Assembly (NCBI GenBank): GCA_963666275.2
Contig: CAXXOA010000002.1
Span: forward strand, 768,001-832,000
Reading direction: 5' to 3'
DNA: 64,000 nt
Origin: Oceanispirochaeta sp.
GTDB taxonomy: Bacteria; Spirochaetota; Spirochaetia; DSM-2461
Shown: in pieces, positions 48,697-64,000 of the stretch
Layout: every line of letters starts with the position of its first letter
Position numbering within the stretch: position 1 is the first letter of the stretch
The notes under the pieces: generated by a model
The model's database searches: none
What the model was told of the DNA's origin: nothing
What the model saw: the letters and a program-made list of their open reading frames with translations, nothing else
Program-made: the position numbers and the translations under genes

Positions 48697-50712
48697 ATGC
48701 AAAGTATACGGAATATGAGGTCTGCCCTTTTTAAGAAAAAAGGTTTCAGCTCCATCAAATCTGCCCTGCTCCCCGGTCTCATTCTGCTTCTGAACAGTTC
48801 TCTCGGTTCTCAGGATCTGAACAGTTTTGTTCAGGGGGGAAAGGTGATTACCGACATACTCTGGGTTCTTGTGGCGGCTATCCTTGTTTTCCTGATGCAG
48901 GCGGGGTTCATGGCACTGGAGACAGGGCTCTCGAGAGCAAAGAATTCCATCAATGTGGCCATAAAGAATATTACGGATTTTATATTTTCCATCGCTGCCT
49001 TCTGGTTTATCGGGTACGGACTGATGTTTGGAAAAACCCTTCATGGATTCCTGGGAATCAGTGATTTTTTTGTCGCTTTTGACGATGACAGCTGGAAAGC
49101 CACGTTTTTTGTATTTCAGGCGGTCTTTGTGGGTACGGCTGCTACCATTGATTCGGGGGTTATTGCGGAACGGGCCAAATTCAGTACCTATCTGATCATG
49201 TCGTTTATAACATCTGCTATTATTTATCCTGTTTTCGGACACTGGGCCTGGGGTGGTCTCTTTTATGAGACTCAGGCGGGATGGCTTCAGAATCTGGGAT
49301 TCCTTGATTTTGCGGGATCCAGCGTGGTCCACTCCATGGGAGGCTGGATCGGTCTTGCGGGCGCTATCATTATAGGTCCCCGAATCGGGAGGTTTGCCGC
49401 TGACGGGACCCCCCAGAAGATTCAGGGCCACAACATCGTTTTTGCCTATCTGGGAACTTTTATCCTGTTCTTCGGCTGGTTCGGTTTCAATGCCGGCAGT
49501 ACTCTGGGGGCGGATTTTTCTGTGGCCAATATTATTTCCAACACAATGATCTCCGCTTCCTTCGGAGGGATTGCCGCCATGTTCCTCAGTATGTTTTTCA
49601 GTAAAAGCAAACTCCCCGAACCGGAGATGATTATGAACGGTATTATCGGTGGTCTGGTTGCCATCACTGCGGGCTGTGCCTATGTTAAGTCCGTATCCGC
49701 ACTGGTGATCGGAGTGGCTTCCGGATTTGTTGTCTACTTCGGAACCCTTTTCCTGGAAAAGAAGGGAATCGATGATGTGGTTTCCGCTATTCCCGTTCAT
49801 GCCTTCTCCGGAGTCTGGGGAACCATTGCCACAGGGCTCTTTATCAGACCGGGGTTTCTGAAGGATTTCGGGATGTCCCGGTGGGAGCTGGTGGGTGTTC
49901 AGGTTCTAGGAGTTGCTGTCTGCTTTGTCTGGGGATTCGGCCTCTCTTTTCTGATTATGTCACTGATCAAGAAGTTTGTGCCTGTGAGAGTCTCGGCGGA
50001 ACACGAGAAGATCGGCCTGAATATCTCGGAACACGGCACCTGTTCCAGCATCCTCGAATTATCCAACTCCATGAGAAAGGTGATCGAGGACACAAGGATT
50101 GGAAGCGCCAGGAAACTGGAAACAGAAATAGGAACGGAAATAGGCGATCTGACCAACTACTTCAATGTAATGATCGATAAACTGAAAGAGAAAGAGGAAA
50201 CGGCGGAAAAAGCTCTGGAGTCACTGAGATTTATTTCCATCACTGACGGTCTGACCAAAATCTATAACCGGAAATATATCACAGATGCCGTGGATAAAGA
50301 GCTCAGCCGTGCCAGCCGGTATGATCACAGTGTTTCCATTGTCCTTTTCGATATTGATTTTTTTAAAAGCGTTAACGACAGCTACGGCCATCAGATCGGA
50401 GATCTTGTCCTTGTGAAAACGGCAGAAATCATTCGTGAAAACCTGAGGGAAACGGATCTTATCGGACGCTACGGAGGAGAGGAATTCCTTATCATTCTCC
50501 CTGAAACGGATTTGAAATCCGCTTATGAACTGGCTGACCGTTTAAGGGAGAACGTCTCGCAGATAGCATGGGAATTTGATGTCCAGAGGAAAATAACCAT
50601 TAGCGGAGGAGTCGTGGAAAATCTGGGAGAGAGTTCTCTTAAAATGATCGGCCGGGCGGATGAGCTTCTCTACGTGGCAAAAGACAAAGGCCGGAACCGG
50701 ATCGAAAAATGA
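48697..50712 (+). CDS. amt: Ammonium transporter (Amt) fused to a diguanylate cyclase
   Basis: FLMQAGF..LE.G, HWAWGG, DFAGSSVVH, GWFGFNAGS, DD...AIPVH; helical linker; DGLT, DIDFFK.VND.YGH..GD, RETD...RYGGEEF; one continuous frame. Confidence 0.92.
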   Translation: MQSIRNMRSALFKKKGFSSIKSALLPGLILLLNSSLGSQDLNSFVQGGKVITDILWVLVAAILVFLMQAGFMALETGLSRAKNSINVAIKNITDFIFSIAAFWFIGYGLMFGKTLHGFLGISDFFVAFDDDSWKATFFVFQAVFVGTAATIDSGVIAERAKFSTYLIMSFITSAIIYPVFGHWAWGGLFYETQAGWLQNLGFLDFAGSSVVHSMGGWIGLAGAIIIGPRIGRFAADGTPQKIQGHNIVFAYLGTFILFFGWFGFNAGSTLGADFSVANIISNTMISASFGGIAAMFLSMFFSKSKLPEPEMIMNGIIGGLVAITAGCAYVKSVSALVIGVASGFVVYFGTLFLEKKGIDDVVSAIPVHAFSGVWGTIATGLFIRPGFLKDFGMSRWELVGVQVLGVAVCFVWGFGLSFLIMSLIKKFVPVRVSAEHEKIGLNISEHGTCSSILELSNSMRKVIEDTRIGSARKLETEIGTEIGDLTNYFNVMIDKLKEKEETAEKALESLRFISITDGLTKIYNRKYITDAVDKELSRASRYDHSVSIVLFDIDFFKSVNDSYGHQIGDLVLVKTAEIIRENLRETDLIGRYGGEEFLIILPETDLKSAYELADRLRENVSQIAWEFDVQRKITISGGVVENLGESSLKMIGRADELLYVAKDKGRNRIEK

Positions 50713-57948: not shown

Positions 57949-59124
57949 ATGATCCAATACCCTTTTACCGCCATTGTCGGCCAGGAAGCCATGAAGACGG
58001 CTCTCATTCTTCATGCCATCGACCCTTCCATCGGAGGAGTCCTGATCCGGGGCCATAAGGGAACAGCCAAAAGCACGGCCGTCCGGGCTCTGGCAGAGCT
58101 TCTTCCCCCTCTCCGGGTGGTAGAGGGCTGTCCTTTTCACTGCAATCCTGATGCCCGATCCCTGATTCATGAGGACTGCCGGAACAGGGTAGAAGCCGGA
58201 GAAACTCTGAAAGCTGCTGAAATTGAAGTTCCTCTTGTAGAGCTTCCTCTGGGGGCCACAGAAGACAGGCTGGTAGGATCCCTCCATATGGAAAGGGCTA
58301 TCCAGGCGGGAGAGAGGGTTTTCGAACCGGGTCTCCTGGCGGCCGCTCACAGGGGAATCCTCTATGTGGACGAAGTGAACCTTCTGGACGATCACCTGGT
58401 GGATCTTCTTCTTGATACTGCCGCCTCGGGAATCAACCGGGTGGAAAGGGAAGGCATATCCCGGGTTCATCAGTCTGATTTTATCCTGATCGGCACAATG
58501 AATCCCGAAGAAGGGGAACTGAGACCCCAGTTCCTTGACAGATTCGGCCTCTGTATCAGCGTGACAGGAGAGTCAGATATTAAAAAGAGAAGCGAACTTA
58601 TAAGACGCCGCCTTGCCTTTGAAAAGAATCCGGTACTGTTTGCAGAGTCCTGGGTCGAAACCCAGGAAGCCCTGCGGAAGCAGATTGCCGATGCCCAGGC
58701 CCGATTGCCGCAGATCATAGTTCCCGATGAAGTCCTGGATTCGGCCTCCTCTCTGGCTGTTAAAGTGGGAGCTCAGGGGCACAGGGCGGAAATCACCATT
58801 ATAAAAGTTGCCTCAGCCATCGCGGCCTTTATGGACCGGTCTACCATTTCCCACGGAGATGTTATGCAGGCCGCTGCCATGGCTCTGCCTCACCGGCTGG
58901 ACCGTTATATTGAAATGGGAGAGACCGAACTCCCGAAAGAGCTGACCGATGCTCTGGTTGAAGTCTTCGGAGAACTGCCCTTTCTCTCCAGAGAAGAGGA
59001 GCAGGATGAAGATGACAAGTTCCTGCTCTACGATCCAGACGAGGACCTTTTTCCCGGTAACTTCGCCGGGGGAATGCCCGTTTTTGCCTACCTAAAAAAA
59101 AAGCATCCAACATTGTCCTTCTAG
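57949..59124 (+). CDS. chlI: ChlI/BchI-like AAA+ chelatase subunit (0-frame product, 391 aa)
   Basis: [58 protein letters not shown]; acidic tail; GGAGG RBS. Confidence 0.9.
59094..59103 (+). other. Slippery A9 run (A AAA AAA AAG), candidate programmed -1 frameshift / transcriptional slippage site
   Basis: Lies inside the 59061-59124 overlap of the 0 and -1 open frames. Confidence 0.75.
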
Positions 59125-59894
59125 GGGATGAAATCCCTCTGAAGATCTCTCTGGACGAGCACCGGGTTCTGCCGGGGCGGAAACAGACCCGTCCTTCCCG
59201 CAGGGGACGGCATGTGGCCTCTGTCAAAGTCAGGGAGGGAGAACAGATTGGAGAACTGGATCCTCTGGCCACCTGTCTGGCTGCGGCCGTAAACAGGAGC
59301 GGATCGGGGGAACAGAAGGGTTTTCAGGGTATCTCGCACCGGGACCTGCGGCAGCGTCTGCGGGTTCAGCCTGTCAAAAAAACAATCCTCTTTCTGGTGG
59401 ATTCCTCCGATTCCATGCTTGTGGAAGAGCAGATCAAGCTTGCCAAGGGGGCTGTCCTGGGTCTTCTTACCCAGGCCTATCAGAAGCGCTATCGGGTGGG
59501 AGTCGTTGTGTTTCATGACTGGGAGGCAAAAGTTATTCTGCCTCCCACCACAAGCATTGCCCGGGCCCGTCATGAACTGCAGGCTGTGGTGACCGGAGGC
59601 GGAACCCCTCTGGCCCATGGTCTGGAAACGGTTCTCCAGACTGTCAAAACCGAGCGGGTCCGCCATCCCAATGATCAGCAGCAGATGATCCTCATCACCG
59701 ACGGCAGGCCGTCGGTCGCCCTTCGCCCGTCTGCCAATATCCGGGACGAGGTCCTGACTCTGGCGGATAAATTCCCCGCCCGGAACATCCCCTCTATTGT
59801 ACTTTCAACTGCAGAACCGGGCACTCTCCTCCGTGAGATAGCACTCCATCTGAAAGCCCCTTTAAGAAAGCTCCGGGATGTCATTCATGCATAA
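59100..59894 (+). CDS. chlD: ChlD-like C-terminal half with VWA/MIDAS domain, in -1 frame (fusion about 648 aa)
   Basis: -1 frame reads KASNIVLLG...RRGRHV...[10 protein letters not shown]...[10 protein letters not shown]...[10 protein letters not shown]...LITDG. Confidence 0.82.
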
Positions 59895-62354: not shown

Positions 62355-62609
62355 ATGAAGCTTGTTGATTGCACGGTTGATAAAACTTATAACATTGCTA
62401 CGATCAATACGTTTGATACGGGGATGAAGGATTTTCTTTTTTCTCTGGGTTGCTATCCCGGTGAGAATATCACCCTCATATCCCAGCTGTCATCCAATTA
62501 TGTTATCAACGTTAAAGATGCCCGCTACAGTATTGATAGAAACCTCGCTTCCGCCATTGAAGTGCAGGAAATGGATAATCAGAACTCTCTGAAAGAGAGT
62601 GTTGTCTGA
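62355..62609 (+). CDS. feoA: Ferrous iron transport protein A
   Basis: FLFSLG.YPGE.I, YSIDRNLA..IEV; GGAGG RBS; directly upstream of feoB. Confidence 0.88.
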   Translation: MKLVDCTVDKTYNIATINTFDTGMKDFLFSLGCYPGENITLISQLSSNYVINVKDARYSIDRNLASAIEVQEMDNQNSLKESVV

Positions 62610-62722
62610 TTTTTTTTACCCCGTAACTTAGGAGAGCATAACAATATTCATCTATAATAATTATGGCTGAATCTGCAGTGCCTCCTGTATATATGACTCA
62701 ATAGTAATTGAAGGAGAGATAG

Positions 62723-64000
62723 ATGAAGATTGCTTTAGCAGGTAATCCGAACAGCGGCAAAACAACGTTGTTCAATGCCATTACAGGGAAAATTGAACAT
62801 GTGGGGAACTGGGCCGGTGTCACAGTTGATAAAAAAGAAGGGCTTGTTAAGGCTTCCCTGAATCCCGGAAAGGAGCCGGTCACAGTTGTTGACCTGCCGG
62901 GAGCCTACTCCATGTCCCCCTACACAAACGAAGAATCCATCACCAGGGATTTTGTGCAGAACGAATCTCCCGATGTCATTATTAATATAGTTGATGCTGC
63001 CAATATGAGCAGAAGCCTCTTTTTTACCACCCAGCTGATGGAGCTGGGGATTCCGGTTGTGATTGCTCTCAACAAGAGCGATCTTGTGAGAAAACAGGGC
63101 ACTGTGATCGACACCCTGCTATTGAGTGAATCCCTCAGTGCTCCTGTTGTTGAAACAGTGGCTGTGAACAGTGCGGATAAAGGACTCCTGAGTCTGCTTG
63201 AAGCTGCCGCCCTTGTATACGGTGAAAAGAAAAAACAGATTCCTCTTCCTGTCCGGGGCGCTGGAAATGCCTCCACCAGGGAAGAAATGGAAGAGGTGGA
63301 CAAAAAGAGGTTCCACCTTGTAAAGAAAATTGTAGAGCAGGTAGAGCGGAGAAAACTGGACTCTTCAAAACAGTCTCTTCAGGATAGAGCCGACAAGATC
63401 GTAGCCAGTAAATGGCTGGGACTTCCTATTTTCGCCCTTATTATCTGGCTTGTTTTTTCAATCTCCCAGTCCTGGGTCGGCCCCTGGATGGCTGATCTTC
63501 TGGTGGGCTGGATCGATGGTTTCTACGGCCTTGTGGAATCGGTCATACCCGAGTCGACCAATGCTGTACTCAGATCTCTCCTTCTCGATGGTATCATCGG
63601 CGGCGTCGGAGCAGTGGTGGGATTCCTTCCCCTTATCATGGTGCTCTTCTTTATGCTGGCTCTTCTGGAAGATTCCGGATATATGGCCCGGGTTGCCGTG
63701 ATCATGGACGGATACTTTAAAAAGATCGGTCTTTCGGGAAAGTCCATCATTCCGATGATTGTGGCAACAGGTTGTGCCATTCCGGGAATTATGGCGACAA
63801 GAACTATCAAGAATGAACGCCAGCGCCGGACAACAGCCATGCTTTCTCCCTTTATGCCCTGTGGTGCTAAACTGCCTATCATTGCGCTTTTTGCCGGTGT
63901 TTTCTTCAATGACAACGCCTGGGTGGGAACATCCATGTATTTTCTGGCTATCGCAGTCATTATCCTCAGTGGCCTTGTTATCCGTGCTATTACCGGAGAC
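62723..64000 (+). CDS. feoB: Ferrous iron transport protein B (cut by window end; not in ORF track)
   Basis: Manual translation MKIALAGNPNSGKTTLFNAITG..EHVGNWAGVTV, DLPGAYS, NKSD, LEDSGYMAR, GCAIP, PFMPCGAKL. Confidence 0.93.
   Translation, partial: MKIALAGNPNSGKTTLFNAITGKIEHVGNWAGVTVDKKEGLVKASLNPGKEPVTVVDLPGAYSMSPYTNEESITRDFVQNESPDVIINIVDAANMSRSLFFTTQLMELGIPVVIALNKSDLVRKQGTVIDTLLLSESLSAPVVETVAVNSADKGLLSLLEAAALVYGEKKKQIPLPVRGAGNASTREEMEEVDKKRFHLVKKIVEQVERRKLDSSKQSLQDRADKIVASKWLGLPIFALIIWLVFSISQSWVGPWMADLLVGWIDGFYGLVESVIPESTNAVLRSLLLDGIIGGVGAVVGFLPLIMVLFFMLALLEDSGYMARVAVIMDGYFKKIGLSGKSIIPMIVATGCAIPGIMATRTIKNERQRRTTAMLSPFMPCGAKLPIIALFAGVFFNDNAWVGTSMYFLAIAVIILSGLVIRAITGD

Follow-up and report, generated by a model that had tools for sequence, protein, structure and literature searches.

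A chlI/chlD-type gene of Oceanispirochaeta split at a nine-A run is probably recoded into the two subunits of a non-chelating AAA+/VWA motor

Introduction

The class I chelatase motors BchI/ChlI-BchD/ChlD and CobS-CobT (1g8p, 8osg) combine a Clade-7-type AAA+ fold with a MIDAS VWA adaptor, and two preprints on CobST describe a hexamer ring that engages the VWA subunit (bioRxiv 10.64898/2026.07.21.739949, 10.64898/2026.10.09.757910). Recoding in this gene family is already published, as the first-pass annotation of the locus studied here had stated for prokaryotic chlD genes, and the published cases include a spirochaete without a large subunit (Antonov 2013, PMC3711429; Kuznetsov 2022, PMC9227772). 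In the 'Magnesium chelatase' cluster of Antonov 2013 two annotated ORFs are linked by a −1 frameshift at poly-A, and cassettes of the family are reported there to shift in E. coli at 63%, 40% and 10% with 11, 9 and 7 A, respectively. Kuznetsov 2022 places in 'stage 1' the fs-chlD genes of Spirochaeta thermophila DSM 6578 and Brevefilum fermentans, which are accompanied by no large subunit and whose function is stated there to be unknown. A further point of reference is dnaX of Thermus thermophilus, which according to Atkins 2016 (PMC5009743) has a run of nine bases, with stops close by in the other frames and two Lys tRNAs, and gives a long and a short subunit of one AAA+ machine.

Here we analysed a 64,000-nucleotide stretch of DNA from Oceanispirochaeta sp. 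(hereafter the window), in which a ChlI-like ORF is followed in another frame by a VWA ORF. Like the 'Magnesium chelatase' cluster and the 'stage 1' genes as these are described, the gene is a chlD split in the −1 direction at an A-rich site. With the 'stage 1' genes it also shares two predicted products and the lack of a large subunit in the searches made here, and the S. thermophila DSM 6578 protein P0130 ends in ...VPGAAAAGSLMFEFVKKKLTRWSTNR, the same motif as that of the window gene, so that both belong to one subfamily. The genera named for the cluster in Antonov 2013 (Pseudomonas, Delftia and methanococci) lie outside this subfamily. The window gene departs from the account in Kuznetsov 2022 (PMC9227772) in three respects: 'stage 1' by definition lacks B12 genes, whereas anaerobic B12 genes, CbiK among them, are clustered in the window's genome; downstream RNA structure is described there as usual, if not obligatory, whereas none is conserved here; and the fs-chlD event is read there as translational, whereas we favour polymerase slippage. 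It shares the listed features with T. thermophilus dnaX, but in dnaX frame 0 gives the long product and here it gives the short one, and slippage has been shown for dnaX whereas we infer it from sequence. The best explanation as a whole, to which we give a probability of roughly 0.55, is that slippage at the nine-A run, probably by the polymerase, yields two subunits of a motor that does not chelate.

Results

ORF1 (57949-59124, + strand) encodes, as judged from its translation, profile matches, AlphaFold2 and Foldseek, a short ChlI-like product of 391 aa with a calculated mass of 43.1 kDa. Residues ~4-320 form the AAA+ core, which is followed by a helix, an acidic linker and a conserved tail. 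The profile matches are TIGR02030, at 408 bits and thus under the curated NCBIfam cut-off of 467, and TIGR02442 at model positions 1-313. Several stretches of the AAA+ core are conserved in the subfamily alignment, which we take to be the Walker A, Walker B, sensor and arginine-finger motifs. The AlphaFold2 model of ORF1 has a mean pLDDT of 79.5, and its top Foldseek matches are BchI/ChlI, the best being BchI 1g8p (E 1.8e-33, 47% identity). The acidic linker (EEEQDEDD...DPDED, 58993-59046, +) is predicted to be disordered, with pLDDT <50 at residues 346-375; it lies 5' of the shift site and is therefore present in both products. A cysteine/histidine cluster, C-x3-C-x8-H-x2-C, is encoded at window positions 58129-58179 (residues 61-77); it is near-invariant in the subfamily, deleted in two members (L046, L047), and possibly a metal site.

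The slippery run of nine A (59094-59102, +) lies in CTA AAA AAA AAG, with CAT as the next codon, and contains both A_AAA_AAA and A_AAA_AAG in phase. Immediately before and across it the alignment reveals a peptide motif of the subfamily, x(F/V)PG(S/A/N)xA(A/G)GxxxFxxL-KKK (59044-59103, +). ORF1 stops 22 nt 3' of the run, and these 22 nt (59103-59124, +) are dual-coded, frame 0 reading HPTLSF* and frame −1 reading ASNIVLL. The −1 frame is open at 59061-59894 (+) and encodes a ChlD-type segment (TIGR02442 model positions 407-621) and a VWA domain, the C-terminal part of a predicted joined product of 648 aa and 71.4 kDa, a length inside the 500-800 aa range of fs-chlD. The VWA domain (59385-59747, +; PF13519/PF00092) has its MIDAS residues in DSSDS at 59400-59414, T at 59604 and D at 59700, and D-x-S-x-S, T and D are invariant in 15/15 aligned −1 products. 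The anatomy drawn in the first-pass annotation thus held on the sequence, from the AAA+ ORF, the linker just before the run and the open −1 frame to the intact MIDAS, as did the calculated lengths with and without a −1 shift. It had also proposed looking for a separate chlI; tblastn of the genome detected one chlI/chlD-like locus only, this one, and the second match was weak (E 9e-4 over 66 residues), so that a separate small-subunit gene was not found in the genome.

Runs of at least 9 A are rare on the coding strand of this genome, with 26 among 3277 ORFs of 300+ codons. Orthologues with 71-77% identity were present in 8 of 61 related genomes, and in all of them the run is A9, its phase is unchanged and the VWA domain is in the −1 frame. 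To extend the comparison we used a tail profile that matched 69 of 401 class genomes; the 50 that matched via the motif were taken and the 19 that matched via AAA+ helices only were left out, and together with three non-spirochaete loci these gave a set of 53 genes in 20 genus-level groups. Because the profile ended in two Lys it was biased to Lys codons, not to 9 A; counts over the 53 genes ignore kinship, and the members are not independent. A run was present at the same spot in 53/53, as A9 in 36, A10 in 16 and A11 in 1, at 13-17 codons after the PG of the motif and in codon phases 0, 1 and 2 in 30, 7 and 16 genes. All 52 split genes shift −1 at the run, none +1, and one gene is in frame; the −1 VWA frame is clean in 48/53 and has a further downstream break in four, which count against our explanation as decay or assembly error. 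A metagenome scan returned 80 general relatives, two with the motif, and both of these have A9 and a −1 frame.

The split is no miscall, and the gene has the anatomy of a recoding gene. That the break is a homopolymer miscall of A10 in an intact chlD, or that the gene is a pseudogene, has in our view a negligible probability: A-runs are error-prone and one member is in frame with A11, but the same break recurs in 52 of 53 independent assemblies and in three codon phases, all 16 close protein-database matches end in KKKHPxLxF at the same stop, purifying selection acts on both halves (see below), and Logan contigs of runs X1 and X2, perhaps of the source sample and none with 31 letters on both sides of the run, have no indel there. 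The Logan contigs break at window positions 59087-59117, a break explained by the occurrence of the surrounding 31-mer in other organisms of the same sample. The alignment of orthologues proposed earlier thus found both the A run and the break kept. The in-frame member, G713 (L190:4851-6836, − strand), encodes 661 aa with A11 and meets stops after 4 codons in the −1 and 12 codons in the +1 frame, so that it has either inverted polarity or a miscalled A10. It too scores below the curated cut-offs (622 < 779 for TIGR02442, 341 < 500 for TIGR02031), and its model has AAA+ and VWA domains joined by a loose linker, with a mean pLDDT of 85.2. Among 120 tail-profile matches listed, 113 are short and seven, with 655-677 aa, are in-frame fusions; in P0071, one of the seven, the two parts meet at FTYLKKK-IEDRYF, the predicted junction. 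G713 and the seven fusions may have the Thermus polarity.

In a FastTree phylogeny of 139 AAA+ domains, with SH-like support and long branches flagged, the window gene falls in a 17-row group (support 98) of 14 spirochaete and three deltaproteobacterial-type genes. Outside the spirochaetes, among 401 genomes of the phylum of G459, the motif was matched in G459 alone. The closest orthologue (L002, in G045, 77%; compare L003-L009) belongs to another family, whereas no strong match was obtained in 26 genomes that are of the same family as the window but of other genera. The distribution of the subfamily is patchy, and transfer is possible.

Selection was followed on both sides of the run in nine orthologues. 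Upstream of the run pN/pS is 0.23. It is 0.28 in the VWA part, which follows a GTG at 59214-59216 (+), the sole possible internal start ahead of the VWA domain in this genome. In the 22-nt overlap pS in the −1 frame drops to 0.17, against 0.67-0.76 elsewhere, as expected from dual coding. In the 30 codons from the ORF1 stop to the GTG, pN/pS is 0.33 in the −1 frame versus 1.3 and 2.1 in the other frames; as judged from these codons, the segment would be translatable only through a shift. These data bear on the simplest alternative, that there are two separate genes, the VWA part being translated alone from GTG 59214 with no fusion. The GTG in the window has Shine-Dalgarno-like pairing of −7.3 kcal/mol, and Antonov 2013 (PMC3711429) mentions internal initiation in some fs clusters, but the GTG is kept in only three of the nine orthologues, the −1 codons under selection lie upstream of it, the TIGR02442 match begins 15 residues ahead of it, in-frame fusions exist, and the presence of the run in 53/53 would be left unexplained. 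We therefore hold separate translation, which the first-pass annotation had named as an outcome that would overturn its reading, to be highly improbable, while the pairing allows that some initiation at the GTG may occur alongside. That this is a recoding gene, as had been proposed, is supported by the 53 of 53 runs and by selection on both frames, and we regard it as almost certain; an I-like and a D-like subunit would then likely both be made from it.

Whether the RNA polymerase or the ribosome slips at the run was judged from its length and surroundings. No run of fewer than 9 A occurs among the 53 genes. Synonymous use of AAG, or of one of the common Leu codons, would give a shorter run and still keep A_AAA_AAG, so that length is the feature retained: AAG accounts for 359 of 654 Lys codons in the subfamily genes, and A-ending Leu codons, which make up 5.4% of Leu codons in the genome, are nevertheless used in 15/15 phase-2 A9 genes. 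Stops follow closely in the other frames, within 14 codons in frame 0 in 52/53 and within 21 codons in frame +1 in 50/53. No structure was detected 3' or 5' of the runs (mean z −0.07; 2/53 below −2) and upstream anti-SD pairing occurred in one of 53 genes, in contrast to the E. coli dnaX type, which has an upstream SD and a downstream hairpin. The two downstream stems noted earlier are there as letters but are not conserved, the catcc/ggatg pair being whole in two of nine close orthologues and the ccgtcc/ggacgg pair in one of nine, and they fold no better than shuffles (z −0.57 and −0.08). No shared upstream regulatory element was seen over 300 nt in nine orthologues (37% mean column identity), and promoter and terminator scans remained at chance level. 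The genome carries a tRNA-Lys(CTT).

In Atkins 2016 (PMC5009743), nine A/T is given as a length of efficient polymerase slippage in vivo and a second Lys tRNA is named as the condition for slippage by the polymerase in dnaX of T. thermophilus; Koutmou 2015 reports that ribosome sliding in vitro gave little product at A9 or A10. Because of the run-length rule, the tRNA-Lys(CTT), the slippage length and the poor ribosome sliding at A9 or A10, we put the polymerase ahead of the ribosome, though by a modest margin. A homopolymer of at least nine independent of phase, one trait of transcriptional slippage, is seen in 53/53 and in all three phases; another trait, both directions among orthologues, by the rule in Antonov 2013 (PMC3711429), which takes a uniform −1 direction as ribosomal and expects both directions from transcriptional slippage, is not seen.

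The same two products could instead arise if the ribosome shifts by −1 on A_AAA_AAA or A_AAA_AAG, perhaps with the help of the nascent PGxxAGxxxFxxL-KKK peptide in the exit tunnel, a possibility that we take seriously but consider the less probable. The heptamer A_AAA_AAA is in phase and the frame-0 KKK is kept in 53/53, the direction is always −1, and the sources for this family, Kuznetsov 2022 (PMC9227772) and Atkins 2016 (PMC5009743), treat it as ribosomal where they discuss it. The motif is conserved as protein and not as RNA, its synonymous sites being free (pS 0.76), and its distance to the run is like that which Atkins 2016 (PMC5009743) describes for a nascent-peptide stimulator in fungal antizyme. 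Six of 31 split loci outside the subfamily also have A7 or A8 in exactly the phase that a ribosome requires: in these Chloroflexota genes (L071, L106, L130, L137, L082, L140) A7 occurs only in phase 2 (4/4) and A8 only in phase 1 (2/2). Against the ribosome stand the absence of shorter runs and of any lone A_AAA_AAG among the 53 genes, the lack of stem and SD, the tRNA-Lys(CTT), a motif-to-run spacing that varies by four codons, and the retention of the motif in the seven in-frame fusions, which need no shift for the long form and six of which have just KK. The in-phase A_AAA_AAG of the E. coli dnaX type is present in the window gene and in 23/53 and absent in 30/53. Since each run of at least nine contains an in-phase A_AAA_AAA and KKK is invariant, 'a run of nine or more' and 'KKK plus heptamer' would look the same by sequence. 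The mechanism of slippage may differ between lineages.

Two further observations concern chlD-type genes elsewhere. Methanobacterium ferruginis (L126:8960-9200) has two A8-G runs 30 nt apart in such a gene; the first −1 frame stops after ~14 codons and the VWA frame needs a second −1 shift, so that a double frameshift or an internal ATG start is possible. In Chloroflexota, two in-frame genes (L133:3130-3350, L110:4850-5100) still have A7 and A10 at the usual place.

The predicted short product carries a 50-residue acidic and motif-bearing tail that is absent from ordinary ChlI. P369, G370, A373, F379 and K385 are invariant in 26/26 aligned proteins, and residue frequencies of the motif were tabulated over 119 proteins. 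In the CobN-linked spirochaete and the Chloroflexota split genes the linker comes after the shift, whereas in this subfamily linker and motif come before it. The retention of the motif in the seven in-frame fusions, known as proteins alone, argues for a structural role rather than for a nascent-peptide stimulator. The tail is of low confidence in the single-chain models of ORF1 and G713. A three-chain prediction of tail peptide, AAA+ core and VWA scored 0.59, against 0.00 for the best of three controls and 0.00 when the AAA+ core was swapped, and its runs share at least 38% of contacts with a partner pLDDT of at least 48. In calibration, 116 of 157 solved pairs attained the docking mark, as did 2 of 215 mismatched ones, scores up to 0.60 being those of 18 of the 157 solved pairs and of both mismatches, and the three-chain job is unlike this calibration; the model thus weakly suggests that the tail peptide docks on the AAA+ core.

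We searched for the catalytic partner with PF02514 (CobN/ChlH). There was no match in this genome, which is 97% complete, and none in 52 of the 53 genomes of the subfamily, whose completeness, where given, is 68-100%, with the search control positive in 5/14; in the single subfamily genome with PF02514, separate chlI and chlD matches adjoin cobN on a different contig. The doubt about chelation raised in the first-pass annotation was therefore borne out. Its statement that CobN/ChlH and tetrapyrrole genes are missing from the window extends to the whole genome for PF02514 but not for tetrapyrrole genes, since two CbiK lie together with CbiD and methylases in an anaerobic B12 cluster ~1.2 Mb from the gene; the two cobalamin riboswitches of the genome are >1 Mb away from it. 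The closest orthologue's genome, G045 (97% complete), gave no match to GlutR_N, CobS, CbiK or CbiD, for each of which five genomes were tested. No tetrapyrrole gene was found among 77 scanned of 205 listed neighbours or at the 53 subfamily loci, and in neither of these sets, nor among 115 loci compared, does a neighbour recur across families, the exceptions being generic sensors and one probable YbaK-type neighbour within one family. Since its neighbours are not conserved, the gene appears to be a self-contained unit.

Around the gene, an ammonium-transporter-GGDEF fusion is encoded 7 kb upstream (window 48697-50712) and, by Pfam, also occurs in G004 and G002 (L032, L034), there at a distance of one or two genes upstream, a synteny of the genus only. 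Downstream by 2.5 kb are feoA and feoB (window 62355-64000), which were not seen beside orthologues. In G003 (L036:5598-7658) a second VWA protein of 686 aa is encoded 400 nt upstream of the orthologue.

The gene might still encode the motor of a true chelatase or dechelatase, if the catalytic partner has diverged beyond the reach of PF02514 or belongs to a different family. In fold and motifs it agrees with BchI/ChlI and ChlD, corrinoids are made and used by this genome, and related split genes of other spirochaetes adjoin cobN. However, PF02514 had no match in 52 of 53 genomes and the exception has separate chlI and chlD matches, cobalt insertion is already provided for here by CbiK, the gene is kept in G045 although none of the four tetrapyrrole families tested was matched there, and tetrapyrrole neighbours were not found; we therefore consider a true chelatase unlikely, and the gene very probably does not serve a CobN/ChlH chelatase.

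Discussion

By its sequence the gene is a member of fs-chlD that is predicted to work like a class I chelatase motor and falls outside the complete chelatases. It differs from the known motors in that no catalytic subunit was found, that both products share one intact AAA+ domain, and that the short product has the additional tail and scores under all curated cut-offs. The gene product is most likely a stand-alone AAA+/VWA remodelling motor. Unslipped mRNA would give the 391-aa I-like subunit, and addition of one A by the RNA polymerase at the A9 run would give the 648-aa D-like subunit. With both proteins made and the short form in excess, an ATP-driven ring would be formed, and the long form would contribute the MIDAS VWA adaptor, an arrangement known from class I chelatase motors. 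Because a catalytic subunit was not found, we propose that the motor inserts neither cobalt nor magnesium but would grip and remodel another client protein. MoxR/VWA pairs offer an analogy for a client protein as the target.

A more far-reaching picture, which we put forward tentatively and hold to be doubtful as a whole, is that a mostly spirochaete subfamily of ChlI/ChlD motors left chelation, that polymerase slippage sets the ratio of ring to adaptor, and that the PGxxAGxxxF tail, which both products would carry because the shift site lies behind the acidic linker and the motif, docks on and gates the AAA+ ring in the stead of ChlH/CobN, making a self-contained remodelling machine.

The subfamily bears on two questions of the literature, the role of ChlI plus ChlD without a large subunit (Kuznetsov 2022, PMC9227772) and the choice between ribosome and polymerase. 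The literature that we searched held no description of the motif, the run-length rule, slippage in the subfamily or the near-total absence of CobN/ChlH, although Antonov 2020 might already cover the motif or the mechanism. What is added here is the run-length signal (at least nine, in all phases, with neither stem nor SD), the tail as a tag, and the finding of no CobN/ChlH in 52 of 53 genomes. The subfamily provides a defined test set of 50 genomes with cultured members and an identifying sequence tag, and its natural in-frame fusions are usable for structure work. In annotations such a gene appears as two, a 'ChlI' and a truncated VWA gene, a split that can falsely suggest that an organism synthesizes chlorophyll or makes B12 aerobically.
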